Sequence record: SRR20825019_2795
Direction: 5' to 3' (one strand)
Length of the DNA stretch: 52,334 bases
Below, in pieces: positions 1 through 15,307 of this stretch. Positions within the stretch are counted from its first letter, which is position 1; every line of letters begins with the position of its first letter. Under the pieces are notes generated by a model, which saw only the letters and a list, made by a program, of their open reading frames with translations, did not search any database and had not been told where the DNA came from. Both the position numbers and the translations under genes were made by a program.

Positions 1-2012
1 ATTTCGATAGGTTGGGTAAACTCATAATTATTGCCCGGCAGTTGTTTCACTGCAGCTTCAATTTGAGCGATAAGTTCACGCTTGGGCAGGTCCGGCTGTG
101 GCCACTCACTTCTTGGTTTAAGGATCAGGAAAGTATCGGCCACATTCGGCGGCATAGGATCCGTGGCAACTTCCGGTGTCCCCAATTTGGCAAAGACTTT
201 ATCAACTTGCGGGAATTCCTTTAACCGTTGCTCGAGCAGTTCTTGCATCTTAATGGATTGCTCAAGACTGGTGCCGATACTGCGAAGCGCATGCAGTGCA
301 ATATCCCCTTCGTTAAGTTGCGGGATAAACTCAGAACCCATTTTGCTGGCCACATTGATTGATACTGCAACGATAATGGCGGCAACAAGGAGAACGACCC
401 AGCGCAACTTCAGACTGAGCAGCAAGACGGGACGATAAAGCCATTTTGCACCACTGATAAGCAGACTCTCTTTTTCCTTGACCCGGCCTCCCATGAACGT
501 CGCCACGGCAGCCGGCACGATGGTGAGTGTGAAGATCATGGCAGAAACTAGGGCAATAATGACTGTTGCAGCCATCGGTTCAAACATCTTCCCTTCAACA
601 CCAGTGAGGGAAAACAAGGGAATGTATACGACGGTAATGATGGTCACACCGAACAGACTAGGCCGAATTACTTCGTTAGTGGCTTCAAAAACAACTTGTA
701 AACGTTCTTTTAAGGGTAATATTCCCCCAGCCTGTCTTTGTGCGATAGATAGCCTGCGGATCGCGTTTTCAACGATAATCACAGCACCATCGACAATCAA
801 ACCAAAGTCGAGCGCCCCCAGGCTCATCAGGTTGGCAGAAATACCCGCTTGGACCATGCCGGTAAATGTTGCCATCATGGCCAGCGGTATGACGGCCGCA
901 GTAATCAACGCGGCCCGGATGTTCCCCAACAGCAAAAACAACACAACGATGACCAGCAGAGCCCCTTCCAGCAGGTTTTTCTGCACCGTCTTGATAGCCT
1001 TGTCGACTAGTGTTGTGCGGTTATAGACCGCTTCAGCGATGACACCTTCCGGCAGTGAGGATTGAATCGATTTAAGTTCCTTTGCGACTCTCTCAGAAAC
1101 CTCACGTGAGTTTTCACCGACCAGCATCATCACCGTGCCTACAACGGTTTCTTTACCATCACGCGTGCCCGCACCGCTACGAAGCGGCTTTCCAATGACG
1201 ACCTCGGCAACGTCTTTGACTAATACTGGCCGATCGTTAATATTTTTCACCACGACATGGCGAATATCTTCGATAGTCTTGAGCTGTGCCGGTGATCGAA
1301 CCAGAATTTGTTCGCCAAAGCGCTCAATATAACCGGCCCCCCGATTATCGTTATTACGCATTAAGGCCTGTTTCAGTTCACTGAGGCTGACACCAAAATT
1401 TAATAACTTCGTGGGATCGGGCTGAACATGATATTGCTTGTCATAGCCGCCGTTGGTATTCACCTCAGTGATACCTTTAACACGCTCAAGTCGTGGCTTG
1501 ATTACCCAGTCCTGAATCACGCGTAAATCGGTGGCATCATAAGGTGTGCCGTCATCCTGTCTGGCCCCCGGTTCGGCTGTCACCGTGTACATCAGAATCT
1601 CGCCCAGTCCTGTCGCAATAGGCCCCATTTCAGGTTCAAGCCCTTCAGGCAATGAGCCTTTGATGACCGCAAGGCGATTATTGATAAGATTACGCGCGAA
1701 ATAGAGATCCGTTCCTTCCTCAAATATCACAGTGACTTGTGATAGCCCATAGCGGGAGATGGAGCGGGTGTAATCAAGATTTGGCAGACCGGCAATGGCT
1801 CTTTCGACCGGGTAAGTGATGCGCTGTTCTGCCTCCAGTGGCGAATAGCCGGGTGCTTTGGTATTGATTTGTACTTGTACATTGGTGATGTCAGGAACCG
1901 CATCAATCGGCAATTTCTGGTAACTCCATACACCCAGACCGATAATGAGGAATATCAGGGACAACATCAGGCCCCGTCTCTCAATTGAGAACGATAGAAT
2001 TTTATTTATCAT
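1..2012 (-). CDS. czcA: CzcA/CusA family heavy-metal efflux RND permease (5' part; runs off the window edge)
   Basis: Manual minus-strand translation from ATG at 2012 (GGAG RBS upstream): MINKILSFSIERRGLML...LPIDAVPDITNVQVQINT.APGYSPLEAEQRITYPVE, the typical HME-RND N-terminus. Absent from the ORF track because its stop lies outside the window. Confidence 0.93.
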   Translation of the reverse strand, partial: MINKILSFSIERRGLMLSLIFLIIGLGVWSYQKLPIDAVPDITNVQVQINTKAPGYSPLEAEQRITYPVERAIAGLPNLDYTRSISRYGLSQVTVIFEEGTDLYFARNLINNRLAVIKGSLPEGLEPEMGPIATGLGEILMYTVTAEPGARQDDGTPYDATDLRVIQDWVIKPRLERVKGITEVNTNGGYDKQYHVQPDPTKLLNFGVSLSELKQALMRNNDNRGAGYIERFGEQILVRSPAQLKTIEDIRHVVVKNINDRPVLVKDVAEVVIGKPLRSGAGTRDGKETVVGTVMMLVGENSREVSERVAKELKSIQSSLPEGVIAEAVYNRTTLVDKAIKTVQKNLLEGALLVIVVLFLLLGNIRAALITAAVIPLAMMATFTGMVQAGISANLMSLGALDFGLIVDGAVIIVENAIRRLSIAQRQAGGILPLKERLQVVFEATNEVIRPSLFGVTIITVVYIPLFSLTGVEGKMFEPMAATVIIALVSAMIFTLTIVPAAVATFMGGRVKEKESLLISGAKWLYRPVLLLSLKLRWVVLLVAAIIVAVSINVASKMGSEFIPQLNEGDIALHALRSIGTSLEQSIKMQELLEQRLKEFPQVDKVFAKLGTPEVATDPMPPNVADTFLILKPRSEWPQPDLPKRELIAQIEAAVKQLPGNNYEFTQPIE

Positions 2013-2025
2013 GCAGAACTCCGTA

Positions 2026-3174
2026 TTAGTGGGCGTGTGCCGCGCCTTCTTTTTCCAGATCAGCCTTAATGAGGTAGCTGTTCTCTACGACGATTTCATC
2101 GCCTTGCCGGAGTCCGGATAACACTTCGCTGTATCTGCCATCGGAAATACCCAATTTCAGTGGTTTAACCTGATATTTTCCATCCGTTTTGAGAAAGGCA
2201 ACTTGTGAGCCTTCATAGCGTTGAATGGCACTGTTGGGAATTCTGATGTCCACGGTTTCTTGCTGGATAATGACTTGTGCTTCCACTAATAAGCCCGGAA
2301 ACAGGGTTGCTTCTGCGTTTTTAATGGGAACACGGGCAATTCTGTATGGCTGGGCCTGATTACTTGGCAGCAGTTGCTTGATACTGGACTCAAACTTTCG
2401 TTCACCATTCAACAGGTGAACTTTTTGCCCGGCTTTTATTGCAGCAGCCTGCTCAGGGAACACTTTAAGCTCTGCCCACAGTGAATTGGTATCGGTAATG
2501 ATGAACAGGACTTGATCAGTGGCGATTTCGCCTGTGCTGGCTTCTTTTGCTGTAATCGTGCCTGAGATGGGAGCACGCAGGTTGTAGCTCTGCAAACTGT
2601 TATTGGATTCCACACTCGCCAGTAACTGCCCTTTTTTAACCTCATCACCAAAGTTCACATTAACGCGGGTAATTCGGCCAGGAAAACGGGCTCTGACCTG
2701 ACTCACCTGATCAGGTGAAAGTACAATCCTGCCATAGAGCTTGGTCGTCAGTGATACCTCTCCGGCCAGGGCTTTCGCGGTAGCGAGGCCTTGTTGACGG
2801 GCCATCTCATCATCGATTTCAACGTGATTTTCCTCTTCACTTTCATGCCCATGCCCGTGCTCATCCTCATTAGCGGTCGCAGGTGAAGCATGCTCACTGT
2901 GAGATTCAGTTGAATTATGCGTTTGTTCGTCATGCTGATGCTGATCGACACTGTGCGACTTCTCTTCTTTGTGCGAAGAACTCTCAGACGCTGAATCATG
3001 CTTATGGTCAGCCTCTGATTCGTGTTGTTCAGTTTGCTTATCAGCATGTTCATGCTCGTTTTGAGCGATAACAGGTGATGCGGCGGTTATCAGCAACAGT
3101 GCCGACAGGATTGATAGACCGCTGTTCAAGGAAAAGTTAATCCATCGTTTTTCAAACATTTTTTTCTGATACAT
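2026..3174 (-). CDS. czcB: CzcB-type efflux RND periplasmic adaptor with long His-rich N-terminal linker
   Basis: Signal peptide, His/Glu/Ser-rich region, lipoyl-like motifs (RARFPGRI...GDEVKKGQLL, LRAPISGTI), C-terminal AAHAH; lies between the OM factor and the RND permease. Confidence 0.92.
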   Translation of the reverse strand: MYQKKMFEKRWINFSLNSGLSILSALLLITAASPVIAQNEHEHADKQTEQHESEADHKHDSASESSSHKEEKSHSVDQHQHDEQTHNSTESHSEHASPATANEDEHGHGHESEEENHVEIDDEMARQQGLATAKALAGEVSLTTKLYGRIVLSPDQVSQVRARFPGRITRVNVNFGDEVKKGQLLASVESNNSLQSYNLRAPISGTITAKEASTGEIATDQVLFIITDTNSLWAELKVFPEQAAAIKAGQKVHLLNGERKFESSIKQLLPSNQAQPYRIARVPIKNAEATLFPGLLVEAQVIIQQETVDIRIPNSAIQRYEGSQVAFLKTDGKYQVKPLKLGISDGRYSEVLSGLRQGDEIVVENSYLIKADLEKEGAAHAH

Positions 3175-3179
3175 TTTGT

Positions 3180-4478
3180 TTACTCCGTTTCAGCCAGTGG
3201 CTCTGCTGTCAGTTGCTCAATTTCAGCCTCGTATTTGAGCGCTGCTGTGGCAGCCTCGATAACAGCACGTCTGGCGTTGAGCAAATCCTGTCTGACAGTG
3301 AGTAAATCCAGATAACTATAGAGTCCACGCTGATAACCCACGCGTGTCTGCTCCAGGCTGGTGTTAAGTTTGGGGATAATTTGTTGTTGCAGCTTCTGAA
3401 TGCTGGTGATGGCCTGACTACGACCTGAATAGGCGCGATATAATTGCGTATGAAGTTGCAGCAACACGTCCTGACGGCGATAGGTCACTTCATTTCTGGC
3501 GGCCAGTGCTGCTTCTATTCTGCCCTGAGCCCGCTCCTCGCTGAACAGCGGCATAGAAATGCCCGCAACCAGAGCTGAATCGTCTATACCTTCATCTCGA
3601 CGTATCCCGACTGACCAGGTCAGATCAGCAACTTGCTGGGTTCGAGCAAGACGGACTTCGGCATCACGAACCCGCGCCTCGGCAGCAAACATTTCGATCT
3701 GTGGATTTTGTTGTGCTTTAGCGAATAAAGCATCGAATGGCATCGCTTCATTAAAGGAATAGAGTGATCCCGATACTTCATCGAAAGCAGGCTGGTAGCT
3801 GCCCCACAAGTTAGCCAATGCCATTCGGTGCGCCTCAAGCTGTCGCTGCTCTGCAAGCAGGGTCAACTCTGCTTGTTGAACCGCAGCTTCAGCACGGCCC
3901 AGGTCGGCCTTAGGCGCCACGGCAGCACTGACTCGCCGGTTGACTTCTTTTAATGTCGTCTGAGCGAGCTCCAGCCCCACTTCTGCTAGTTTTACTCGCT
4001 CCTGGCTGTTGAGCACGTTGATGAACCGTCTTGTCACCTGACCCAGTAAATCCAGTGCTTTGACCTTGCGCTCAACACGAACAACATCGCTTTGTTGTTC
4101 AACCAAATCGACACGCGACTGGCGTTTACCACCCAGCTCTAACACGGAGGATAATGTGACCCGTGTTTCAAGGGCCTTGATACCGCTTAGCTCCCCTGTT
4201 CCGGCAACATTTTCAACTTCGGCACCGACCACATAGGCCGGTTTAAGGTTGGCAGTTTTTTTCTGCGCTTCCAGTCCCTGCTGGCGTAGTGGAAAAACCT
4301 GTAAGGAAGGATGCCGTTGTAGCGTTTGTTGCATCGCATCTTTCAGACCCAATGCCATTTCTTGTTGCTTGGCATCAGCATTGACCATCGGCGCCATCGC
4401 AGCCAGGAGCAATGAACAAAACAAAGCAGGAACAACTGGCTTACGTGAACTCTGCACGCAATCATATTGCTTTTTCAT
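3180..4478 (-). CDS. czcC: CzcC/TolC family outer-membrane efflux protein
   Basis: Signal peptide, helical repeats, ELGGKRQSR and YQRGLYSYLDLL motifs typical of CzcC; operon position. Confidence 0.9.
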   Translation of the reverse strand: MKKQYDCVQSSRKPVVPALFCSLLLAAMAPMVNADAKQQEMALGLKDAMQQTLQRHPSLQVFPLRQQGLEAQKKTANLKPAYVVGAEVENVAGTGELSGIKALETRVTLSSVLELGGKRQSRVDLVEQQSDVVRVERKVKALDLLGQVTRRFINVLNSQERVKLAEVGLELAQTTLKEVNRRVSAAVAPKADLGRAEAAVQQAELTLLAEQRQLEAHRMALANLWGSYQPAFDEVSGSLYSFNEAMPFDALFAKAQQNPQIEMFAAEARVRDAEVRLARTQQVADLTWSVGIRRDEGIDDSALVAGISMPLFSEERAQGRIEAALAARNEVTYRRQDVLLQLHTQLYRAYSGRSQAITSIQKLQQQIIPKLNTSLEQTRVGYQRGLYSYLDLLTVRQDLLNARRAVIEAATAALKYEAEIEQLTAEPLAETE

Positions 4479-4483
4479 GAGTG

Positions 4484-4551
4484 AAATCCTGTATATCTGT
4501 GAACAACGGACTCAGGTCGAGCCCGCATGAAATGTCAGCAGATCAGGATTT
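4484..4551 (-). promoter_or_regulatory. mRNA hairpin pairing the leader ORF 3' end with the czcC Shine-Dalgarno
   Basis: Top strand AAATCCTG (4484-4491) / CAGGATTT (4544-4551), ATCTG (4495-4499) / CAGAT (4539-4543), inner ACGGACTC / GAGCCCGC. On the mRNA the AGGA RBS lies within the outer stem. Confidence 0.7.
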
Positions 4552-4893
4552 AGGGGGGCGGTACATACTGACTGAGTAGTCAGTGACAGAGGCTAGTTGG
4601 TAGGGGTAAAAAAAGTTATCCGGACTCGGATAAACATCAATGTCTGCACTGGTATTGATAGCTGTAAAGTGCGAACAGTGGCAGTGCATGCAAAAAGCAC
4701 AACCATCTGCAGAGGATGAGTTGTGTTCTCCAGTATGTTGAGCCTGATCTTGCAGACCGTCATTGAGGTCATCATTGTGAAGATGTTGCTCAGGAGCATG
4801 TTCTGGCACAACACTGTGAACGTCAGCCGCAACAATGCCTGATTGAATGACAATCATCAGGATAAGCACTTTGACGAAAGAATGGACTGACAT
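4543..4893 (-). CDS. Small exported Cys/His-rich protein, CzcI/DUF2946-like putative regulatory leader
   Basis: N-terminal hydrophobic signal, His-rich middle, CAFCMHCHCSH motif, C-terminal YRPP; first gene upstream of czcC. Confidence 0.7.
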   Translation of the reverse strand: MSVHSFVKVLILMIVIQSGIVAADVHSVVPEHAPEQHLHNDDLNDGLQDQAQHTGEHNSSSADGCAFCMHCHCSHFTAINTSADIDVYPSPDNFFYPYQLASVTDYSVSMYRPPKS

Positions 4894-5126
4894 GGGTTCA
4901 GGTATTTATGATGGGCACAAAGTTGAAGACAGACTCATTATGAATGAGTTCCAACCATGAATACAAATTTTGGACTTTTACCTGCCTGTTTAAGTTGTGT
5001 ACAAATACACTGGTTTTCAATTCATTGTTTAAATAGACGTCGCGTTCTGAATTTCATTTATACGTCAATAAAAATGGCTTCTGACAACTTCATATGACCC
5101 AGATTGCAATTAATTAAGCTCTCACA

Positions 5127-5163
5127 AAATAAAAAGCTGAGCACCATCAGGGATGGTGCTCAG
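5127..5163 (-). terminator. Rho-independent terminator of the cupredoxin gene
   Basis: 12-bp perfect stem CTGAGCACCATC/GATGGTGCTCAG (5137-5163), followed on the minus strand by a U-rich tract. Confidence 0.8.
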
Positions 5164-5203
5164 ACAAAACCGAGCTTTTGAGCTTCGTTACTTGCGTGAC
5201 CGC

Positions 5204-5656
5204 TCAACGATTTTCAGCTGCTTTGATTGCTTTTCTAGCAAGCCTTCCGGCAGCACCTTTGGCATCAGCATTTTTGATTTGTTCAAGGTTGACTGGTTCA
5301 CCCACAATGATCACACCACCCATACCGGCACCCCAGTGTGGAACACATTTGTATAAGTAAATTCCGTCTTGCGTAAAAGTGCGATCATAATTTTTACCAA
5401 TTTCCGACTCCCAGTGCTCCGCTCCCTCAGGAATCAGACCTTCAAGTGATTTTGTGTTGTGAGTAGGCATATTCCGCCAGGAAACAGTATCCCCATTGTC
5501 GATAGTGACCACCAAAGGCATGAACTTAAGTCCTTGGGCCTTCACAGTGTGTGTTTCTGCCTCAGCAGACTGCGCAGTCACAGGCAACATCAAGGCGAGG
5601 AAAAAAGTGAACACGCTATTTTTAACAAAGTGAATCGCTTTTGATGTTTCAAACAT
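5204..5656 (-). CDS. Pseudoazurin-like type-1 (blue) copper protein
   Basis: Signal peptide; ligands H (PTHNT) and C-x2-H-x4-M (CVPHWGAGM); C-terminal helical extension typical of pseudoazurins. Confidence 0.85.
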   Translation of the reverse strand: MFETSKAIHFVKNSVFTFFLALMLPVTAQSAEAETHTVKAQGLKFMPLVVTIDNGDTVSWRNMPTHNTKSLEGLIPEGAEHWESEIGKNYDRTFTQDGIYLYKCVPHWGAGMGGVIIVGEPVNLEQIKNADAKGAAGRLARKAIKAAENR

Positions 5657-5929
5657 ATTAAGCCTCCTCTTGGATCTAAGTCATAAGTCATTCCCAAAGT
5701 CACCGTAACATGAACTCATAAGGCAAAAAAATAACTAAAGCATCCTAAATGGGTGGAAAATTCAGTTTGATTAAATGCCTCTGAATCAAACCAATCAGAT
5801 TTTTTAATTTTTATTTAATAACGATCTCTTATGATGATCAGTTAATTTTGCTTATCGCTATCCATCAAAGATTATTCAGCGTTTATTGCAGTTCAAAACG
5901 GCGCCAAACAAATCAACTAAACTTAAGAA

Positions 5930-6322
5930 ATGAAAACATCAATAAAAACCTTCCCCCACAAACATACTGGTATACGACGACTCATTTTTGCTTTTTATTA
6001 CTCCATGAAGGGGCTTATGGCTGGCCTTCGATATGAAGCGGCATTTCGGCAGGAATTTTTGTTATTTGCTGCAGTCATACCCATCGTTTTTTTGCTTGAT
6101 TTCACTGTCACTGAACGGCTCGCCCTGATTGGTAGCGTGCTGGCAGTTATGGTGGTGGAACTGGTCAACTCCGCTATCGAATGCACCCTGGACCGCGTCA
6201 GCATCGAGATGCATCCCCTGGCAGGACGAGCCAAGGACTACGGCTCTCTGGCTGTTCTAATTACTTTAATGTTTGCTATCGCTGTATGGGCGTCACTAAT
6301 CTTGCCAAAACTGATTAATTGA
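5930..6322 (+). CDS. dgkA: Diacylglycerol kinase
   Basis: YS.KGL...YEAAFRQE, VELVNSAIE..LDRV, HPLAGRAKDYGS motifs; 3 TM. Confidence 0.95.
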   Translation: MKTSIKTFPHKHTGIRRLIFAFYYSMKGLMAGLRYEAAFRQEFLLFAAVIPIVFLLDFTVTERLALIGSVLAVMVVELVNSAIECTLDRVSIEMHPLAGRAKDYGSLAVLITLMFAIAVWASLILPKLIN

Positions 6323-6326
6323 AAAT

Positions 6327-8327
6327 ATGAAACGTAATATTCTGTCTCTTCTCGGGCCTTATGCAATTCTTCTCAAAATTCTACTGACGGGGTTAGTAGT
6401 CCTTTCCCTGTCGCGCTGGGCATTGGTTGCCTGGCAGTGGGATCGCGTTAGCGAAGCTATCAGCCTGTGGGATATGTTTGTTCAGGGCATCAGAGCCGAT
6501 CTCATCATCATGGGCATGCTCATCGCCCCATTGGCCTTGGTGATGCCTATCCTGGTCAATAAAATTGGCTGGCCGCTGTGGCAGAAACTGGTCTGGCTCT
6601 GGGGTATCGTGATTGTTGTGTTGCTGGTGTTCATGGAATCGGCGACGCCAGCCTTTATTATGCAATACGATCTGCGGCCCAATCGTCTCTTCGTCGAATA
6701 CCTCAATTATCCGAAAGAGGTGTTCTCGACATTGTGGGAAGGGTTCAGAATACCGCTGATTCTGGGGGTCTCACTCACCATTTTCGCCGGCTGGCTGGCA
6801 AACAAAGTGCTTCGCCGCTGGCAGGCGAATGAACAGCTTAACTGGCCTTTCTGGAAAGTCTGGCTCGCCTGGCCGCTGCTTGTGCTGCTTCTGGTTGTCA
6901 TGATCCGATCAACATTCGGCCACCGTCCGGCAAATCCCGCCATGTTTGCGATTACTTCTGACGCCATGGTCAACAGTCTGGTGATTAACTCCAGCTGGTC
7001 AGTGTATTTTGCCATTTACAACATGCAGCACGAGGCCGAGGCCAGTGAGGTCTATGGCACGATGACCGATGATGCCATCATGAAAGAGATGGATGAAAAC
7101 TATCCCTGGCTCAATAGCAATCCCGATGCGCCCTTCCCCACGCTTAACAAGCGGCCTGCACCGGTTGAACGGGACAAACCGCTTAATCTGGTCATTATTC
7201 TTGAAGAAAGCCTGGGGGCAACTTTTGTCGATTCATTGGGCGGTGAATATGCGGTGACCCCTGAGCTTGAAAAACTGAAAAAGCAGGGTTGGTGGTTTGA
7301 GCAACTTTATGCGACCGGCACCCGCTCTGTGAGGGGCATTGAAGCCACCATCAGCGGATTCTTACCCACCCCAGCCAGAAGTGTTGTCAAGCTGTCACTA
7401 TCACAGCAGAACTTTTTCACCATCGCTGATTTGCTGAGTCAAAAAGGCTACCAAACTGAGTTTATCTATGGCGGCGAATCGCACTTCGATAATATGGCTA
7501 ACTTCTTTATCGGTAACGGTTTCCAGTCTGTCATCGATCAGGATGACTATGAAAACCCGGTTTTTGAAGGAAGCTGGGGCGTGTCAGATGAAGATTTATT
7601 CAATAAAGCCCATGAGAGAATTCAGCAGGCCGAGCAATCTGAAGAACCTTACTTTGGTTTGGTATTTACTTCCAGCAATCACTCACCTTACGAGTTTCCT
7701 GATGGCCGTATCGATCTTCATGTACCGGAAAAACAAACCGATCTGAATGCCGTCAAGTATGCGGATTATGCACTGGGCCAATTTTTCAAAAAAGCCAGGC
7801 AGAGTGACTATTGGGACAATACCCTGTTCCTTGTTATCGCTGACCATGATCTGAATGTATACGGTGATGCCCTTGTGCCCATCGAACGATTCCAAATTCC
7901 GGGGCTTATTATGGGTGCAGATATTCAGCCAAAACGGATTAAAACCGTCGCCAGTCAAATCGATATGGCACCGACATTATTATCTTTAATGGGAATCAGT
8001 GCAGAAACACCGATGATTGGTCGTGACTTGAGTCGTCCTGAAGAACAACAATCTCAAGGCAGAGCGCTGATGCAGTTCGCGGATTATTTTGCGCTGCTAC
8101 AAGGAGAAAAAGTCACTGTGCTCCGTCCGCAAAAAGAGGCGCTTGCTGGGCATTACTCTCCCGAAGTTCGACAATTGGAAATCACCGGGCCTGCCGATGA
8201 CGAGGACGCCCATGAGGCCCTCGCGCATGTGCTGTTACCCTCATGGTTATACCGGGAACAACGCTATGATATGCCTTTGGGACACCCGCTGCACAAGAAG
8301 CAAACTGAGACTCCTGCACTAGAATAA
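6327..8327 (+). CDS. LTA synthase family (phosphoglycerol transferase-like) membrane sulfatase-superfamily protein
   Basis: About 5 N-terminal TM helices, then NLVIILEESL, ATGTRSVRG, TSSNHSPY, ADH alkaline-phosphatase-superfamily motifs. Confidence 0.88.
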   Translation: MKRNILSLLGPYAILLKILLTGLVVLSLSRWALVAWQWDRVSEAISLWDMFVQGIRADLIIMGMLIAPLALVMPILVNKIGWPLWQKLVWLWGIVIVVLLVFMESATPAFIMQYDLRPNRLFVEYLNYPKEVFSTLWEGFRIPLILGVSLTIFAGWLANKVLRRWQANEQLNWPFWKVWLAWPLLVLLLVVMIRSTFGHRPANPAMFAITSDAMVNSLVINSSWSVYFAIYNMQHEAEASEVYGTMTDDAIMKEMDENYPWLNSNPDAPFPTLNKRPAPVERDKPLNLVIILEESLGATFVDSLGGEYAVTPELEKLKKQGWWFEQLYATGTRSVRGIEATISGFLPTPARSVVKLSLSQQNFFTIADLLSQKGYQTEFIYGGESHFDNMANFFIGNGFQSVIDQDDYENPVFEGSWGVSDEDLFNKAHERIQQAEQSEEPYFGLVFTSSNHSPYEFPDGRIDLHVPEKQTDLNAVKYADYALGQFFKKARQSDYWDNTLFLVIADHDLNVYGDALVPIERFQIPGLIMGADIQPKRIKTVASQIDMAPTLLSLMGISAETPMIGRDLSRPEEQQSQGRALMQFADYFALLQGEKVTVLRPQKEALAGHYSPEVRQLEITGPADDEDAHEALAHVLLPSWLYREQRYDMPLGHPLHKKQTETPALE

Positions 8328-8498
8328 CGCTATCCTGGAGTCTAGTTTCCAAGTCTGCGCCCATTCTCCAATGACAGTTGTGGGCCATGGTGACGGATTT
8401 TGCTTTGCTGTTTTTGCTGCACTCGCATGCCTGGCTGTTAAACTTGCTGGCTCTAATCCATTTCAACCCTCCCCCCACTTCTGAACCAAGGTCAGCAG

Positions 8499-10718
8499 AT
8501 GTTTCGCAAAACCAAGTTGAAAATTGTTTATTACCTCAACGCGGCCTTGATTATCTTGCTGGTTGGCTATCAGATCTACCTGAACCTCTCAGACACAAAA
8601 TATGCTTCACTGCATCTGTCACAGATTGCTGACATTCAGGCACGTCTCGAAGGAAAAAATGCATTTCAATTTATTGTCGCTGGCAATATCAATAATTCCA
8701 CAAGCATTTTCCAGAAACAGTTTATTCCCGAACTGAACCAGTCAGAAGCAGCGTTTCTGATTTCTGCAGGTAATGCCGTCAGCGACGGTGCCGAAGAGAA
8801 CTATCGCTCCTTAATCAAAATGCTGGCTGGTTTGCAAATGCCCTGGCTGCTCACTTATGGGGAGAATGAAGATAGTGATTTTGGCGATTTTCGTTTCTTT
8901 GAGCACTTCGGCCCGCCATTTTTTTCCTTCAATGCTGCCGACAGCCATTTCATTTTTCTTGATAACACAGGTAATACCCCCTACCAGTGGCAACTTGACT
9001 GGCTGGACCAGGAATTAAGCCATTCCCAGGCACGGAATCGGTTTGTCTTTCTTGGCCTGCCGGTCCACCCACAACTGGAAAACACCTCGGCATTTACCAA
9101 GGATAATTATTTCAACAATGTCGAGATAGGCGAGCAATTACACACGCTATTTGAGAAACATCAGGTTGATGTGGTCTTCTCTGCCAATCTGGCTCTTTAT
9201 GCCGAACAGACAATTGATGGCGTTCGTTATGTCACGACCGGAGGCGCTGGCGGTGTCATTGTTGATGACGAAAACAGCTTTCATCATTACACCATGGTTG
9301 ATGTTTCGGCTGGCGAAATCAATATTGCGCCTGTACGCCCCAGCATCAGCCAATCCTCTCTCCATAGAACGCTGAGCAGTATATGGTCAGCTATCTACAC
9401 CTTTTTTTATGTCAGTTTTTCACGGTTTCTCGTCGTGGTCAGTCTATTGATATTAGTCGGCCTTAAACTACGCGAAATTATCTATGAGGAGCGTGACTTT
9501 TATACCCACTTCACCATTGATGACACGCAGTACCGAAATAAACCCAAGCAGATTGCTTTCTTTACGAATAATTATTTCCCTTTTATTTCAGGCGTCACTA
9601 TTTCAATTGAACGACTGGCTCGCGGCCTGCGTGACCGTGGAAACCAAGTCCATATTTTTGCGCCTGACTATGCCGAGGAGAAAGAGTCCGAATCAAACTG
9701 TACCAGGGTAAAAACCCTGTTTGCCTTCGGTAACAAGGGTGAGTTCAGACTCACTAATCCATTTCAGACATCTATCAGGAAAAATTTTCAACGTTTCGCC
9801 GCTGATCTCATCCACGTGCACCACCCATTCTGGCTGGGCTCGGTCGGCTTATGGCTGGCAAGAAGACATCATAAGCCGATTATTTACACCTACCACACCC
9901 GTTTGGAAATGTATGCCCATTATGTGCCGCTGCCCGGGGCACTATTCCGTAATGTTATTTCTCATCTGGTTGTTCGACGATTTTGCAATAAATGTGATGG
10001 CGTCGTCGTGCCTACTTACTCCACTGAAGAGTATCTGCGTTTGATTGGTGTGAAAAGCCGAATTTGTGTGCAGCCTACTGGAGTTGATTTTGAGCGTTTT
10101 AATGTCCCTCACAAATTAAAGCCTTTGGCACTCAAACAAAAGCTTGGAATTGATAATGAACTGGTCCTAATCACTGTCTCCCGTCTTGGCAGAGAGAAGA
10201 ATATAAAATTTCTGATTGATGCTATAGCCAGTCTGGAATCAGATACCCATAGCAAGATACGCCTGCTGATTGCCGGTGAGGGTGATGACCGTCAGTATCT
10301 GGAAAACCGGATTGCGAACCTGGCTATGCATAACACCATCCAACTGGTTGGTGCCGTGACACCAGAAGATATTCCCGCCTATTATCAAATGGCAGACATC
10401 TTTGTTTTTGCCTCCAAGTCCGAAACCCAGGGTATGGTGGTCCTAGAAGCGATGTCTGCCGGCTTGCCCGTGGTTGCTATCCGTTCCAGTGGTATAGATG
10501 ATGTGATCGTGGACGGACGAACCGGTTTCAAAACATTGGATAATATTGAAAAATGGACCGCTAAACTCGAGTTGCTGATTAAAGATGAGAATATGCGTGC
10601 CACATTCTCTGAGCACGCACTGGAATTTGCTAGGCAGCATGACACAGCAGTGTTTGCCGAGAACATGGATCATTTTTACAGTGAAGTCATGGTAAGCTAT
10701 TACCAGCAAGACAAATAA
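8499..10718 (+). CDS. Fusion of a degenerate calcineurin-like metallophosphoesterase domain and a GT4 glycosyltransferase
   Basis: N-terminal TM; phosphoesterase-like fold (FIFLDN..QLDWLDQEL..VDVVFS..YVTTGGAGG); second TM; GT4 with YFPFISGV, YTYHT, SRLGREKNI, SETQGMVVLEAM. Confidence 0.85.
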   Translation: MFRKTKLKIVYYLNAALIILLVGYQIYLNLSDTKYASLHLSQIADIQARLEGKNAFQFIVAGNINNSTSIFQKQFIPELNQSEAAFLISAGNAVSDGAEENYRSLIKMLAGLQMPWLLTYGENEDSDFGDFRFFEHFGPPFFSFNAADSHFIFLDNTGNTPYQWQLDWLDQELSHSQARNRFVFLGLPVHPQLENTSAFTKDNYFNNVEIGEQLHTLFEKHQVDVVFSANLALYAEQTIDGVRYVTTGGAGGVIVDDENSFHHYTMVDVSAGEINIAPVRPSISQSSLHRTLSSIWSAIYTFFYVSFSRFLVVVSLLILVGLKLREIIYEERDFYTHFTIDDTQYRNKPKQIAFFTNNYFPFISGVTISIERLARGLRDRGNQVHIFAPDYAEEKESESNCTRVKTLFAFGNKGEFRLTNPFQTSIRKNFQRFAADLIHVHHPFWLGSVGLWLARRHHKPIIYTYHTRLEMYAHYVPLPGALFRNVISHLVVRRFCNKCDGVVVPTYSTEEYLRLIGVKSRICVQPTGVDFERFNVPHKLKPLALKQKLGIDNELVLITVSRLGREKNIKFLIDAIASLESDTHSKIRLLIAGEGDDRQYLENRIANLAMHNTIQLVGAVTPEDIPAYYQMADIFVFASKSETQGMVVLEAMSAGLPVVAIRSSGIDDVIVDGRTGFKTLDNIEKWTAKLELLIKDENMRATFSEHALEFARQHDTAVFAENMDHFYSEVMVSYYQQDK

Positions 10719-10736
10719 TGTAATGCTTCTATAAAG

Positions 10737-11474
10737 TTAACGCCCCAGACGTTTCGTCAGCCAGAGCAGGAAGCCGAAAAATAAAGCAATCAGTAGAATG
10801 GCGACAAAAAAAGCAGACCATGAAATATTCTGGTCAGAAACCAGCAACCTGCCTAACTGACCGCCAAATGCTATGACAACAACCAGCCCAGGCAACAAGC
10901 CAATAGAAGATCCCACCATATAGCGCCTGAAATCAAGCTTGAATGCACCTGCCAGCATATTGGTCATGGTAAAAGGCGCAATAGGAAGCAAGTTAATAAT
11001 CACCATACTTTTGAAACTATTGTTTTGAATAAAGCTTTCTGCACGACGCACAACCGCACCACCGTGTTTTTCTATGCTTTCACGCCCTACACAATGTCCC
11101 AAAACATAACTTGCCGCTGAAGACATCAGCGAGCCCAGTAAAGCACAAAATATCGCCCATTCAGTCTGGAACAGCATGCCCGTAGTCACAACTAGTAACG
11201 TGAGGGGAAACATCACTGCAAGTAGCACAGTGTAGAGCAAACAGATAATTAACAATCCCCACAGGGAATACTCGAACTGTTGTGCGCCTTTTGCCAGCTT
11301 CAGAACTGAGGCATTACTAATATAGCCCGCATCAATCAAATACCGCCAAAGCAATGTCATAACAAGCAGTGCAATAAAAATCAGGAGGCTACGTTTAATA
11401 GATTGTGGCATCGATTCTTTAAATTTATAGAGTGAGGATGTTTTTTTACTGAAAAAGCCTTTTGAGGCAGCCAC
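10737..11474 (-). CDS. TVP38/TMEM64 (VTT, DedA superfamily) membrane protein
   Basis: MFPLTLL...GMLF, SYVLG, LLPIAPF..TNMLAG, YMVGSSIGLLPG motifs. Start may be further downstream (MPQS). Confidence 0.85.
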   Translation of the reverse strand: MAASKGFFSKKTSSLYKFKESMPQSIKRSLLIFIALLVMTLLWRYLIDAGYISNASVLKLAKGAQQFEYSLWGLLIICLLYTVLLAVMFPLTLLVVTTGMLFQTEWAIFCALLGSLMSSAASYVLGHCVGRESIEKHGGAVVRRAESFIQNNSFKSMVIINLLPIAPFTMTNMLAGAFKLDFRRYMVGSSIGLLPGLVVVIAFGGQLGRLLVSDQNISWSAFFVAILLIALFFGFLLWLTKRLGR

Positions 11475-11619
11475 TTAGTACCAGCATCAAAAGATTAAGG
11501 TTCGCTTTGATCTGCGACGCCTATAGTCCAAATCTGGTATTGTACTGTCCGCGTCAAATGTACTGCCCATACATTTGGCTAACAACTCCCCTTTTCTAAA
11601 GATAGGCAAGACGAAATTT

Positions 11620-11815
11620 GTGACTATTTTACATACTATCTTGTTGGGACTCATCCAGGGCATCACTGAATTTCTACCCATTTCAACTTCCGCTCATTAT
11701 TATGGCCCTGGCTGCCATTCATTTCTCTCTGAAATGGCTAAATCTTTTCGGCATGTGGCCTTGTGTCCTATAGGGCATCCGTCTGGGCTACCGTAATTTA
11801 TTTTTTATTTATTAA
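11620..11815 (+). pseudogene. uppP: Internally deleted undecaprenyl-diphosphate phosphatase remnant
   Basis: GTG at 11620 gives ILLGLIQGITEFLPISTSAH (UppP N-terminal signature), followed at once in another frame by ALAAIHFSLKWLNLFGMWPCVL*, which resembles the UppP C-terminal helix. Confidence 0.78.
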
Positions 11816-11828
11816 ATAAGGAGAAACT

Positions 11829-12803
11829 ATGACGCTTGCTCTGCTCGCCATTCTGGGCGGTTTTATGTTGCTGGTTTGGAGTGCAGACCGCTTTGTGGAA
11901 GGTGCCGCTGCTACTGCGAACCATGCCGGAATGCCTCCCTTGTTAATTGGCATGGTGATTGTCGGTTTTGGTACTTCGGCACCGGAAATGGTGGTATCCG
12001 CAATGGCAGCCCTTGATGGTAATCCGGATTTAGCGTTAGGCAATGGTATTGGTTCAAATATCGTTAATACTGGACTAGTGCTCGGTTTCACCGCACTGCT
12101 TACGCCACTGGCTGTGCACTCTAAAATAGTTCGTCGTGAACTGCCCTTGTTGATAGTGATTGGATTGTTGGCTGGCGCTGTATTCTGGAACGGTAGTTTT
12201 AGTCGCCCTGAAGCCATTTTATTGCTGATTGGTTTTTTTGCCCTCATAGGGTGGTCCATCTTTTCCGCTATTCGAGGCCATGGTGACGCACTCGAGCAGG
12301 AAACAGAGCAGGAGTTGGCAGCCTATCAAATGTCACTCGCTAAGGCTATGTTCTGGCTGGTGATAGGTTTGTTGCTTCTAATCGGCAGCTCTCGTCTGCT
12401 GGTGTGGGGTGCCGTCACTACCGCCCAAGCGCTTGGGGTCAGTGATCTAATCATTGGTCTGACAATTGTTGCACTTGGGACTTCACTCCCCGAACTTGCC
12501 GCTTCGGTGATTGCTGCACGCAAAGGTGAACATGACATAGCGATAGGTAATGTAGTCGGTTCCAACATGTTTAATCTACTCGCGGTTGTGGGGATTGCGG
12601 GTGTTATCAGCCCCATTCAGCAACTTACATCGGAGATCATGACTCGAGACTGGCCAGTTATGATGGGATTGACCTTTGTCCTATTCTTTATTGCTTTTGG
12701 TTTCCGTCAACAAGGCCGCATTAATCGTGTTGAAGGTGGAATATTGCTGCTTCTATTTGCAGCCTACAATGCCTGGTTAATTACTAGCGTGCTCACTTCA
12801 TGA
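11829..12803 (+). CDS. Calcium/sodium antiporter (CaCA, YrbG-like)
   Basis: Two alpha repeats GFGTSAPE...GNGIGSNIVN and ALGTSLPE...GNVVGSNMFN; about 10 TM. Confidence 0.93.
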   Translation: MTLALLAILGGFMLLVWSADRFVEGAAATANHAGMPPLLIGMVIVGFGTSAPEMVVSAMAALDGNPDLALGNGIGSNIVNTGLVLGFTALLTPLAVHSKIVRRELPLLIVIGLLAGAVFWNGSFSRPEAILLLIGFFALIGWSIFSAIRGHGDALEQETEQELAAYQMSLAKAMFWLVIGLLLLIGSSRLLVWGAVTTAQALGVSDLIIGLTIVALGTSLPELAASVIAARKGEHDIAIGNVVGSNMFNLLAVVGIAGVISPIQQLTSEIMTRDWPVMMGLTFVLFFIAFGFRQQGRINRVEGGILLLLFAAYNAWLITSVLTS

Positions 12804-13022
12804 CCATCATGCTCAGTACACCGACACTTCTTTATGGCTATGGTTTGATTGAATGACATGTCATTATTGATAACTATCCACTTTATATAAAGTCGACTCA
12901 TAGACATCGGTTAATACCCATCAAGCAGTATCTATCTGCCTACCCTAATCCGTCTCCTGATAATGAATTGGAAAGTGTGTTTGGGATATTGAAATCGTAT
13001 CTCTGATACAGTTGAACGGATT

Positions 13023-13400
13023 CTTATTATGGCTTCAAGCCAACTTAATTTAATAAGCCAGAAAGACAATGATGTACTTTACAAGATGCCTATTAAAAGT
13101 TGCTGACTTAAAATTCAAAGAGACATACTTGCCCATTAGGTGAGAGCAAAAGCGTCAGTTATCGAATGGGTAAGTATGTAGGGCTTAGACCTGAAAATGG
13201 GAATTTTCAGTTTTAAGCCCTGTAGTCAGCCATACTTTTCTTGGCATCTTGATATTTGTTTCAAAGTGAGCCTTGGCTTGCCGCTTTCTGTCAAATATCA
13301 GCTCCCTATTCACAGCCAGCCTCAATAATTGTGAGCTGAATAACATGGCTCAAGCCAGCTTTTCACTATGCTGAAGGCAACTTAATTTCAGTGGTTGCTG
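13023..13400 (+). ncRNA. Candidate structured RNA (or folded ssDNA element) upstream of the tyrosine recombinase
   Basis: Nested stems: 13082-90/13243-51, 13095-100/13234-39, 13102-08/13224-30, 13123-37/13165-79, 13180-98/13203-21 (GGGA tetraloop), 13250-58/13292-300, plus flanking hairpins; several G-T pairs that work only on the + strand. No ORF. Confidence 0.6.
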
Positions 13401-13403
13401 ACC

Positions 13404-14261
13404 ATGACGCCGAAGACATCACTTGAATATCAGAAGCTAGCTAAACACTTTTTGGCAACCAAAATTCAGGGGGATCTTGGCATTGATAATATCAAGTCAG
13501 CTCTGATTGAACTCGCCTCTCATTACCGCCCGGCATATTGGCGTCGTCTCCGCTGTGCTATTAAACATGCCTTATTCCTCGCTGGTAAAAAAGAGGCGGC
13601 AAATATCATTGGTAACCTCGAAAATCCATTAACCAAAAAAAATACAGGTAATAGCAAAGACATAAAACCAAAGCAAAAGCGCATCAAGTCTGTGTCATTT
13701 GATGAACACATACATCTGATGAAGCACTTCAGAGCTCGCTGTGATGCCTCCATGCTTGGTGCACTTCAAATTGCCTGGCTGGTTGGGTGTAGGCCTGCAG
13801 AAATGCCCTACATTCGCCTTCATGACAACTGTACGGTGTTTATACCCAGCGCCAAAAAAACCGCCGATGGCAAGCGAGGTTTGGACCGGACCATTTCACT
13901 CAACCAAAAGTCATATGATCTTCTTCGTCATTCTATCGCCCTCTTGCACCAAGAGTTGGACTCGATGACGAAAGATCATGTGAAAGGTATGCATCGTATT
14001 CAGAGACGACTTCAAACAGCGACCAGTAAACTCTGGCCAAAAAAACGATACAACATCACCCTGTATTCATACCGCCATCAGATGGGAAGCGAGCTTAAGG
14101 CTTCAGGAATGTCTCGTGAAGCTATTGCATTGATTATGGGCCATCAAGGTATTAATTCGATCGACAAATACGGTGACCGGCGACTGGGAACCGGCAGAGT
14201 CCTTCCCGTTCCTTCTTATAACCTTACTCAAAAGGCCTCAGCTTCAAGTCTTTCAATCTGA
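13404..14261 (+). CDS. Tyrosine-type site-specific recombinase, short (about 285 aa)
   Basis: Catalytic set: R (GCRPAE), K (SAKK), Y-x-x-R-H (LYSYRHQ), H (IMGHQ), Y (IDKYG). ATG at 13404 preferred over TTG at 13395. Confidence 0.85.
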   Translation: MTPKTSLEYQKLAKHFLATKIQGDLGIDNIKSALIELASHYRPAYWRRLRCAIKHALFLAGKKEAANIIGNLENPLTKKNTGNSKDIKPKQKRIKSVSFDEHIHLMKHFRARCDASMLGALQIAWLVGCRPAEMPYIRLHDNCTVFIPSAKKTADGKRGLDRTISLNQKSYDLLRHSIALLHQELDSMTKDHVKGMHRIQRRLQTATSKLWPKKRYNITLYSYRHQMGSELKASGMSREAIALIMGHQGINSIDKYGDRRLGTGRVLPVPSYNLTQKASASSLSI

Positions 14262-14391
14262 GGCAAGTAGGCAATAAAAGCCTTTGCTTTATACCGCTGG
14301 TAATCATCAGCACTAGCGGCACAAACATCATTAATAAACAAACCGAAACGACATCAACTTGAAAAAAGATGGACCGCGATAATCGTCATTG

Positions 14392-14422
14392 TGCTACATT
14401 GACTGCTACAAAAACTGCTACA
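14392..14422 (+). repeat. Three TGCTACA direct repeats at 12-bp period; probable integrase arm-type sites
   Basis: TGCTACA at 14392, 14404, 14416, about 100 bp from the tRNA 3'-end duplication. Confidence 0.7.
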
Positions 14423-14467
14423 AAGAGTATTTATTTAAAAATTTGGACAGTTAGGAATTTTGTTTAA

Positions 14468-14480
14468 TATCAATAACTTG
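14468..14480 (+). promoter_or_regulatory. IHF binding site within the att arm
   Basis: TATCAATAACTTG fits WATCAANNNNTTR exactly and lies between the arm repeats and the att core. Confidence 0.65.
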
Positions 14481-14515
14481 AACAAATAGTAAGTTGCTAT
14501 CGTGTGTGAGTGTGT

Positions 14516-14539
14516 GTTCGATTCCCACCCTCGGTACCA
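14516..14539 (+). mobile_element. attR core: duplicated 3' end of a tRNA (probably tRNA-Leu)
   Basis: GTTCGATTCCCACCCTCGGTACCA = T-loop, T-stem 3' strand, acceptor 3' strand CCTCGGT, discriminator A and CCA. No D-arm, anticodon arm or 5' acceptor strand upstream. Confidence 0.82.
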
Positions 14540-14812
14540 ACTTTCCTTGCAGTACCCCATTCCTTTACAACAAATCCCCTTAGTCATTAAGCCGGAGCCG
14601 TGGGCGACACTTTTGCTCATCGCCCAACAGAGTGCCGCATATCTGCGCTTGTTGAATTATCTGTACTAGCTTAAACGTGACTTTTCTGAGCACTTTTTGG
14701 CTTCAGAAAATACTGCCTTATAATGAAATCCTAGCCCAGATTTCTGCCTGTAGAGTGGCAAAACTTCGAGTTAGCTAGCTAGTTGGCAGGTAGATTTAAC
14801 AGGGGAAAACCG

Positions 14813-15121
14813 ATGAAATATATCTTTCAGGTTCGCATACAGAAAGGACATAGCGCTGAGGAATATGCGGATGCGTGGGTTCGCGCCAGCGAAATTATCC
14901 AGCAGGCTCCCGGAGCCAGAGGGACGGAGTTGCACCGGAAGGTGGATGACCCGAATCTGTTAATTGCCATTGCACATTGGGACAGTAAGGCAGATCGGGA
15001 TGCCATGGAAGCTCAGCATAATCCCGACGTTGCTCACATCATTCGCAGTGCCGCACCGTTTTGCGAGATTACGCCGCTCGGGGAGTTCGAAGATCCGGAA
15101 TGGGTGGTGATGCCGCGCTAA
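14813..15121 (+). CDS. Antibiotic biosynthesis monooxygenase (ABM) family protein
   Basis: About 100 aa dimeric alpha-beta barrel pattern (APGARGTELHR...IAHWDS); ATG at 14813 with GGGGA RBS. Confidence 0.75.
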   Translation: MKYIFQVRIQKGHSAEEYADAWVRASEIIQQAPGARGTELHRKVDDPNLLIAIAHWDSKADRDAMEAQHNPDVAHIIRSAAPFCEITPLGEFEDPEWVVMPR

Positions 15122-15307
15122 TACTCTTCAGAACGCCTGTCAGGATCTGGTGTTTTAGTATCTCTGGTCCTGAAAGACAATAACCGGGAAAACCCTTTTT
15201 AATCGTTTTACAGCTAGATTATAAAAATCTAGCCAGTTTTCGATTCTCCCCCCTGGGGAGCAAATTTATAGAGGTTGTGAACGCCTATCTGCTTAATCTC
15301 AGGAACA

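Follow-up and report, generated by a model that had tools for sequence, protein, structure and literature searches.

The DNA stretch SRR20825019_2795 (52,334 nucleotides (nt), hereafter the window) raises the question of what a set of nested inverted repeats does directly in front of a small tyrosine-recombinase-like gene. An earlier note, made from the letters of the window, proposed that the recombinase is accompanied by a cognate structural or guide RNA, by a folded single-stranded DNA substrate, or by an elaborate 5' untranslated regulator. We found that the fold of this element is conserved, covarying and specific to the + strand, which folds as a single strand. The best reading of the element and the gene is that they form the mobilisation module of an approximately 33-kb integrative mobilisable island located in tRNA-Leu(CAA) of Methylophaga. 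The element would be an origin of transfer (oriT) in which P3 is the hairpin and the nick falls near 13178-13184, while its relaxase would be encoded by the gene; we assign this reading a probability of roughly 0.6. The features concerned are as follows.

13082-13251, + strand: whole structured element, a three-way junction with P1, P1b and P2 around P3 and P4 (from repeats and folding); proposed origin of transfer
13082-90 and 13243-51, + strand: closing stem P1 (CAAGATGCC and GGCATCTTG)
13095-13100 and 13234-39, + strand: closing stem P1b (AAAAGT and ACTTTT)
13102-08 and 13224-30, + strand: closing stem P2 (GCTGACT and AGTCAGC)
13123-13179, + strand: hairpin P3, arms 13123-37 and 13165-79 (15 nt, 93% complementary, one G-T); proposed relaxase-binding inverted repeat
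13124-30 and 13172-78, + strand: outer arms of P3 (CATACTT and AAGTATG), with a heptamer spacer of 41 nt in the window (13131-13171)
13178-13184, + strand: P3/P4 junction (..AAGTATG followed by TAGGG..); putative nick or crossover point
13180-13221, + strand: hairpin P4, arms 13180-98 and 13203-21 (19 nt, 89% complementary), loop GGGA, 5' side G-rich
13231-13237, + strand: third copy of CATACTT, right after P2
13404-14261, + strand: MobK-related tyrosine-recombinase-like gene, 285 aa, proposed relaxase (from Pfam, 283 relatives, AlphaFold and hhalign)

The main inverted repeats described in the earlier note were all recovered where it had placed them. Two outlying hairpins of its list are weaker: the one at 13020-70 is 75% complementary and the one at 13250-13300 depends on a 9-nt arm. 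In the window, P3 and P4 abut with zero linker. RNA folding of 13015-13405 gave -125 kcal/mol, compared with -93.8 +/- 5.9 for 100 shuffles, and the z-score was -5.31 for the + strand versus -3.76 for the - strand. The impression that the element belongs to no named RNA family agrees with Rfam 15, of which no family reached its gathering score in the window and nothing relevant appeared at E <= 10; in 20 related loci, Rfam detected tRNAs alone. A tRNA gene search of the window found none.

The upstream regions of homologous genes have no BLAST-level similarity, yet their architecture is alike. Covariation beside homologues had been suggested as a check on the structure, and the check came out in its favour. 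For the initial set, 14 sequences were aligned with MAFFT, the structure was set by hand and a covariance model was built from the result. In this alignment, 91.5% of the cells pair, 14 of the 23 pairs are altered on both sides, and the covariation score is 0.44, as against 0.06-0.12 in slid controls; the observed values were reached by 0 of 500 shuffles. At E <= 0.01, the P3-P4 model (R1) detected an element next to a homologous gene in 58 of 88 sources; it matches the window at 13122-13224 (25 bits, E 0.0014). A larger set was obtained by aligning 42 matches to the model, so that this alignment leans towards it: 92.8% of the cells are paired, 17 of the 23 pairs are altered on both sides, and the score is 0.415 (slid controls, 0.05-0.10; 0 of 500 shuffles as high). 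The shuffle statistics are inflated by kinship among the sequences. Since it is conserved beside homologues, the structure is more than a product of chance. The closing stems, which are an addition of the window's subgroup, are also maintained: P1 is kept through compensatory changes in eight Methylophaga-group sequences (one P1 pair is CG in four and AU in four), and P2 is compensated between two subtypes of this group (GCTGACT/AGTCAGC versus GGCAACT/AGTTGCC). Whole-genome scans of 37 Methylophaga genomes gave seven matches at E <= 0.01, at four places and in some cases on both strands, all of which adjoin the gene. The element is present in one copy per genome, and the exact junction motif AAGTATGKRGGG occurs once in the window and at most once in each of five genomes.

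The non-Watson-Crick cells of the 14-sequence set comprise 18 G-T and 0 A-C, and within P3 the numbers are 8 versus 2. Together with the covariation, this bias indicates that the + strand folds as a single strand; the earlier note had favoured a + strand RNA over operator palindromes. A purely duplex protein-binding palindrome fails to explain P4.

P3 has outer arms of conserved sequence and an inner stem that only pairs. In a set of 35 unique P3 sequences, taken from 47 loci, 242 of the 245 cells of the seven outer pairs are Watson-Crick; the other three are T-G, and in each of them it is the 5' arm that has changed. The inner stem covaries, and its pairs are of many types. Distant homologues (proteins 29-35% identical) carry compensated arms (TTTACTT/AAGTAAA, GTTACTT/AAGTAAC and TATTCTT/AAGAATA). 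The G-rich strand that opens P4 follows P3 within 0-4 nt. Besides the window copy at 13231-37, extra heptamers occur near P3 in loci L088, L138, L140 and L158. Four direct repeats of the 3'-arm motif, CGTAAGT(A/G)(C/T)G, precede P3 at about 23-bp spacing in L123:3461-3540 and L109:4000-4075, and in L138:2409-2500 and L140:1000-1091 P3 has, just upstream, another P3-like hairpin whose arms are the same and whose spacer is 67-68 nt. The conserved arm sequence and its direct copies suggest that the P3 arms behave as a sequence-specific protein-binding motif. Reading CATACT as a -10 box was rejected as a general feature, because a 4/6 match to TTGACA at 16-18 nt is present in just 5 of 37 sequences and the region upstream of P3 is unconserved.

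The distance between the two heptamers of P3 ranges from 7 to 78 nt. In 37 unique P3 sequences it takes the values 7/8, 19, 30, 41/42, 54/55, 67/68 and 77/78 nt, i.e., it increases in steps of about 11, with exceptions at 15 (L139) and 20 (L026); within a class, the distance is divided variably between stem and loop. This quantised spacing hints at a linear or helical distance constraint beyond the hairpin model alone.

P4 is a plain hairpin in the window subgroup, with GNRA-like loops. In most relatives it is branched, consisting of an outer stem GGGGYNY/RNRCCCC, a variable hairpin P4a and a hairpin P4b. The latter has a conserved 5x5 internal loop (CGUAG/GGAGU), and a tip that is often GCGAAGC or GCGTAGC, and it is followed by a purine linker (GGAGAA). 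Six of the seven P4 pairs and all four P4b pairs are altered on both sides among the relatives.

The partner gene has an open reading frame (ORF) that starts at 13395 (TTG) or 13404 (ATG) and ends at 14261, corresponding to 285-288 aa. Its Pfam match to Phage_integrase is borderline (27.2 bits versus a cut-off of 27.1), and the protein does read YSYRHQ in place of the usual H-x-x-R, the substitution of Y for H to which the earlier note had drawn attention. In 40 sequences, R130, K151, Y221 and H247 are invariant and R224, H225 and Y256 nearly so; the pentad R-K-(H/Y)-R-H and the tyrosine nucleophile are present, and Y256 aligns with the Tyr of the SYG of MobK. An AlphaFold model made from the 40-sequence alignment (pLDDT 89.6) has four N-terminal helices (residues 3-70) followed by the catalytic domain. 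Foldseek matched this model to XerA and Cre (TMq 0.57-0.60, full length), the Tn1549 integrase and the lambda Int core, while the sequence profile matched, among solved structures, XerA only (E 4e-4), with IntI4 at E 0.8. The predicted structure comprises a core-binding-like domain and a catalytic domain of the Cre/Xer type, and it lacks an arm-binding domain, as had been concluded from the length of the protein.

The nearest characterised homologue is a relaxase. A tblastn search of 72,556 plasmid records at E <= 1e-8 returned 12 records, of which 5 are 2.3-kb Col(IRGK) plasmids of the pIGRK type. An hhalign comparison of the 40-member profile with the 243-aa pIGRK-type protein (L160:1218-1949) gave 99% and E 2.2e-18 over 163 columns (residues 96 to 260), and the tblastn alignment (E 1e-9) had 29.8% identity over residues 120-257. 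The family and the pIGRK-type protein have in common the blocks GCRP.E, KKLWPRK..YS(Y/F)RH and IMGH.S..S..YG, the last of which holds the MobK catalytic Tyr. On the evidence of these alignments, the catalytic domain is homologous to MobK of pIGRK. Because the N-terminal domain is retained, the protein is best termed MobK-related and not a typical member of the MobK/TcpM/MpsA relaxases.

MobK of the Klebsiella plasmid pIGRK is reported to be a tyrosine-recombinase-like relaxase that needs Tyr179 and Mg2+ for oriT-specific nicking and mobilisation (PMC8152469). Its minimal oriT spans 186 bp just upstream of the mobK promoter and contains three pairs of inverted repeats, two direct repeats, AGCGA motifs and a G-rich tract that is required for transfer and dispensable for nicking (PMC8152469). 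The two systems are alike in that the catalytic domains are homologous, that the cis site lies directly upstream of the gene, and that it has inverted repeats, direct repeats and a G-rich tract. The plasmids that bear them are in both cases tiny, with few genes besides one for replication, and typing software calls them non-mobilisable. They differ in that MobK (243-244 aa) lacks the N-terminal core-binding-like domain that the family described here possesses, and in that a covarying multi-helix fold is not described for pIGRK in the available part of PMC8152469.

We propose that the protein would bind the conserved P3 arms and that the + strand would be nicked at or beside the P3/P4 junction. 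The single strand would be passed to the conjugation pore of a helper, P3 and P4 (here also P1 and P2) would fold on the transferred strand, and the hairpin beside the nick would be re-recognised so that the circle could be closed. P4 might act as a priming or coupling signal, or might encode an RNA like the sgm-sRNA of SGI1. The relaxase activity, the nick position, the transferred strand and the role of P4 are putative, and the adjacent cis element of the 58 sources would be assigned as oriT by analogy. This reading is supported by the homology to MobK, a distribution like that of mobilisation modules, the linkage of the element to the gene, the single-strand fold, and the mosaic breakpoints described below. 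An oriT with its relaxase would explain why both unrelated small replicons and islands equipped with an integrase of their own carry the pair, why adjacency and strand are fixed and the element is single-copy, why a conserved arm sequence stands beside a hairpin whose inner stem only has to pair, why the fold is strand-specific, and why hybrid elements are joined at one point. Origins of the RSF1010/R1162 type are classically laid out in the same way: 5' of the nick stands a hairpin whose outer arm is conserved and whose inner stem only has to pair.

Two independent exchanges appear, from sequence comparison, to map to the 3' base of P3. Over 1386 nt (window 11846-13230) L076 shares 95% identity with the window, and per 30-nt window the two are 93-100% identical up to AAGTATGTAGGG. 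Beyond the P3/P4 junction, P4 is about 70% identical with compensatory differences, the remainder is unalignable, and the proteins are 50% identical. L083 and L084 have unrelated left flanks and P3 interiors that are 63-67% identical, and they are 90-100% identical from the P3 3' arm through the gene. Such breakpoints at the P3 3' arm would be expected if transfer began at one oriT and ended at another; alternatively, they may have been caused by homologous exchange within a short conserved patch. A boundary between L097 and L100 at the 5' edge of P3 was discounted as a breakpoint, because the shared part is just about 75% identical. In the assembled contigs of four DNA runs, no joint was found at the element.

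Several observations weigh against the oriT assignment. The three described relaxases of the MobK/TcpM/MpsA kind are said to be without a core-binding or arm-binding domain (PMC8152469), whereas our protein retains a four-helix N-terminal domain and superposes on Cre over its full length; the fused domain is the chief departure from these three members, and judging from the model the protein could still be a true recombinase. The heptamers are 7-8 bp apart, which is the classical crossover-site spacing, in 14 of the 37 unique P3. The unpaired purines conserved in P4b and its G-U closing pair, retained in 16 of 42 sequences, look as RNA-like as DNA-like. In addition, the P3-P4 covariance model did not match the oriT region of the pIGRK type (best score, 2.4 bits), so that the oriT assignment rests on position and analogy.

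The first two of these points keep alive a role in resolution like that of Cre/loxP: in a self-contained site-specific recombination system of the Cre/loxP, ResD/rfsF or TnpI/IRS type, P3 would be the crossover site and would serve to resolve multimers of the small plasmids and of the excised, replicating island. The sites loxP of phage P1 and IRS of Tn4430 are inverted repeats next to their genes, which resembles the arrangement found here. Extra direct repeats of the arm motif, present in some members of our family, are a further likeness, as is the two-domain fold without an arm-binding domain (PMC2847244 for TnpI). Such a system would also fit the XerA match, the accessory-site-like arm copies (four at about 23 bp in L123 and L109, more in L088, L138 and L140), the presence of one site per replicon on many types of carrier replicon, and the sharpness of the mosaic breakpoints at the site. 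However, the arm spacing of 6-8 bp of Cre/Xer-type sites is not seen in the window (41 nt) or in many relatives, where arms 19-78 nt apart are too distant for a classical strand swap. A strand-specific, covarying structure flanking the site, with the P4/P4b covariation and the 18:0 G-T bias, is unexpected for a duplex site, and in sequence the protein is nearer to a relaxase than to any resolvase. We therefore regard this explanation as unlikely.

Integron attC sites resemble the element in three respects: their 7-nt outer arms are conserved, the palindromic centre between them is variable, and exchange occurs at the 3' base of the hairpin. Folding of one strand is also common to both (PMC4792948). 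Unlike an integron, the present system has one site per genome and no cassette array, and the protein matches IntI4 at just E 0.8. Among the options of the earlier note, the strand-specific, covarying fold favours the folded single-stranded DNA, but as an oriT for a recombinase-derived relaxase, given the homology to MobK, and not as an integron- or Xer-like substrate.

The position of the element bears on whether it could be chiefly an RNA. We placed 58 matched loci (52 sources at E <= 0.01 and 6 weaker matches). The element lies within 600 nt upstream of the gene in 48 of them, and in 7 it is located downstream, at 135-198 nt from the gene and ahead of a VapE-like primase gene; of the remaining loci, one has the element 1.4 kb away, one is on a concatemeric contig, and in one the element overlaps the assigned start codon. 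It is always on the strand of the gene and beside it, including on Rep3 plasmids and chromosomal islands. On compact plasmids the gap between it and the start codon is just 20-54 nt, and it is therefore probably transcribed together with the gene. The downstream loci make a pure 5' untranslated regulator, another suggestion of the earlier note, unlikely; the element is a partner of the gene more than its leader. In one subgroup, a hairpin that presents a Shine-Dalgarno AGGA in its loop directly precedes the ATG (20 nt; L080, L091, L096, L017-L020, L025, L092 and L117), and its stem has compensatory variants (TGAGA/TCTCA, TGGAG/CTCCC and TAAGA/CTTAT).

The element could also be chiefly RNA, either a structured leader of the gene or an independent small RNA, required by the protein or serving it as a guide. 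This explanation would account for the sense-strand fold with frequent G-U and no A-C, the purine linkers and 5x5 loop of P4b, the GNRA-like P4 loops of the window group, the probable co-transcription and the covarying Shine-Dalgarno hairpin, and it has a precedent in SGI1 (PMC9299015). On this island, the relaxase MpsA is accompanied by a separate core-binding-like protein, MpsB, and the functional portion of sgm-sRNA, which is essential for transfer, is encoded between oriT and mpsA in their direction (PMC9299015). SGI1 resembles our case in having a recombinase-like relaxase on an integrative mobilisable island with its own integrase, and in the order of oriT, functional non-coding stretch and gene in one direction, which matches P3, P4 and the gene. 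It differs in that the core-binding-like part is separate there and fused here, and in that its RNA is shown by experiment whereas ours would be a predicted one. Against a chiefly RNA element stand the loci with a downstream position, the P3 arms, which are conserved in sequence and directly repeated like a protein-binding DNA motif, and the DNA mosaic breakpoints inside the element. Moreover, Rfam gave no match, the window element lacks P4b, and among the variable loops none was noticed to match flanking or target DNA, although no systematic test was made. We consider that a chiefly RNA element is still less probable than a crossover site. The RNA-like features of P4 and the SGI1 precedent nevertheless keep an RNA role alive. 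In a bolder form, which is unlikely but a little more probable than a chiefly RNA element, the P4 domain might by analogy give rise to a structured RNA that the relaxase family needs for DNA processing or transfer. Nothing supports the IS110-like guide RNA of the earlier note: the protein has a tyrosine recombinase fold, not a DEDD/RuvC-like one, and a bridge-RNA system of that type was rejected. In the literature searched, we found no RNA-guided tyrosine recombinase.

The oriT-relaxase pair that we favour is carried by diverse replicons. Searching a large protein collection at E <= 0.001 gave 283 relatives of the protein, mainly from marine metagenomes, and 80 metagenome loci were collected for comparison. 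Of 37 Methylophaga genomes, 14 have the gene, as do 6 of 400 genomes sampled from the class. A test of 36 whole contigs for terminal k-mer overlaps showed 10 of them to be circles of 2.9-3.9 kb. Clustering and Pfam identified rolling-circle Rep_1, Rep3, a divergent coiled-coil ORF and, in islands, three kinds of larger integrase as neighbours. Replication genes of four kinds occur on the carrier plasmids (Rep_1, Rep3, RepL and 'replication initiation factor'), and sequenced plasmids with both gene and element include pPS1M3 of Pseudoalteromonas (RepL) and a 3.2-kb Pseudomonas syringae plasmid ('replication initiation factor' gene). In island carriers, the gene lies beside integrases of the DUF6538 type, the P4-like type or other types; L017 and L018 have the order tRNA-Leu(CAA), DUF6538 integrase, element and small gene. 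The divergent ORF (about 220-300 aa, with coiled-coil Pfam matches only) is conserved and is read away from the element on many of these plasmids; it is found in 19 loci, e.g., L105:1462-2208 (-) and L138:1505-2329 (-), and could be an accessory relaxosome protein. A phage family was ruled out, as viral contigs gave one weak match, and L102, which had been considered a heterodimer of two plasmids, is actually a repeat of one unit.

Most of the carrier plasmids have a Rep of the rolling-circle type (Rep_1, RepL or 'replication initiation factor'), and the element might accordingly be regarded as their single-strand origin or priming signal (sso/ssi), linked to the gene by modular inheritance only. 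The strand-specific fold on small plasmids is a likeness to ssoA, and TAGCG(T/A), which is apical in many P4b, is the CS-6 consensus of ssoA (PMC4598088); the GCGAAGC/GCGTAGC mini-hairpins point in the same direction. However, the RSB sequence given in PMC4598088 is absent, CS-6-like TAGCG(T/A) occurs in part of the relatives only, and the window element has neither this sequence nor P4b. The element is also found on replicons other than the rolling-circle type, namely Rep3 plasmids and chromosomal islands, where it keeps to the side and the strand of the gene. Membership in the ssoA-type origins was rejected on these grounds, and the single-strand origin is the weakest of the rivals and very improbable.

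In the window, gene and element belong to an island whose right end is marked by two further features.

14392-14425, + strand: direct repeats (TGCTACA, three copies) that separate the gene from the end of the island; likely arm-type sites of the large integrase
14509-14540, + strand: 32-nt 3' fragment of tRNA-Leu(CAA), an exact copy of the 3' end of the gene in contig C4 of genome G001; right attachment site and right end of the island

G001, the nearest genome, has in C4 an intact tRNA-Leu(CAA), followed by TGCTACA direct repeats and a DUF6538-type integrase. A single assembled contig of run X5 carries both island ends, including the intact tRNA copy, about 33 kb apart. Together with the tRNA fragment, these ends place the gene and the element, as read from the assemblies, at the right end of an approximately 33-kb island in tRNA-Leu(CAA). 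The TGCTACA repeats lie inside both island ends and would flank the attachment core in the circular form, and L017 has CTGGTACA-like repeats at this location; such repeats probably serve the DUF6538-type integrase as arm-type sites. We found nothing in the literature on a tyrosine recombinase with DUF6538. A large integrase is present on the island itself, so that there is no need for the small protein to be one. The idea that it is the integrase of the island was rejected, since the attachment core is the tRNA-Leu fragment, which lacks P3, and separate integrases are present.

Window positions 1-3568 and 4952-14550 are 99.96-100% identical to G001, and the identity to the right of 14550 is about 85%. 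The near-identity extends over the island (window 1-14550; C17, C18 and C4 of G001; run X5), and the difference from the chromosomal flank points to recent horizontal spread of the island between two Methylophaga lineages. Among the genes that the island carries within the window are those for RND efflux, a plastocyanin-like copper-binding protein, a sulfatase-family protein, a glycosyltransferase, DedA and a Na/Ca exchanger. Directly outside the right end, a 763-bp segment (14541-15303) contains an ORF with an ABM domain (14783-15121); its place is taken by 33 bp in G001 and by 41 other letters in the X5 contig.

Relaxases of this kind have been named MOB_M; they are described as the commonest relaxases in chromosomes and as usually annotated as integrases, and 96% of them are near an integrase (preprint 10.64898/2026.01.13.699239). 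The literature searched contained no prior description of the present element; the supplements of that preprint, which possibly list the family, were outside the search. Plasmid-database typing labels NZ_AP022627.1, NC_019333.1 and NZ_AP022507.1 as non-mobilisable, although the pIGRK type is mobilisable by experiment (PMC8152469), and the label may likewise be wrong for the marine plasmids studied here.

Three tyrosine-recombinase-derived relaxases have been examined experimentally so far. If the oriT-relaxase reading is true, this family would add a large set of natural variants, and a version that retains the core-binding domain would be a possible link between recombinases and relaxases. 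The element would be the first such transfer origin with a covariation-supported fold and would have a predicted nick position. Many 3-kb marine plasmids now called 'non-mobilisable', as well as the Methylophaga metal-resistance island, would be reclassified as mobilisable. The P4 domain offers a concrete place to ask whether the RNA requirement of SGI1 is general. If P4 does act as an RNA, sgm-sRNA would be the first example of a widespread RNA-relaxase partnership in marine plasmids and islands, and the CGUAG/GGAGU loop would be a site of contact with protein or DNA.

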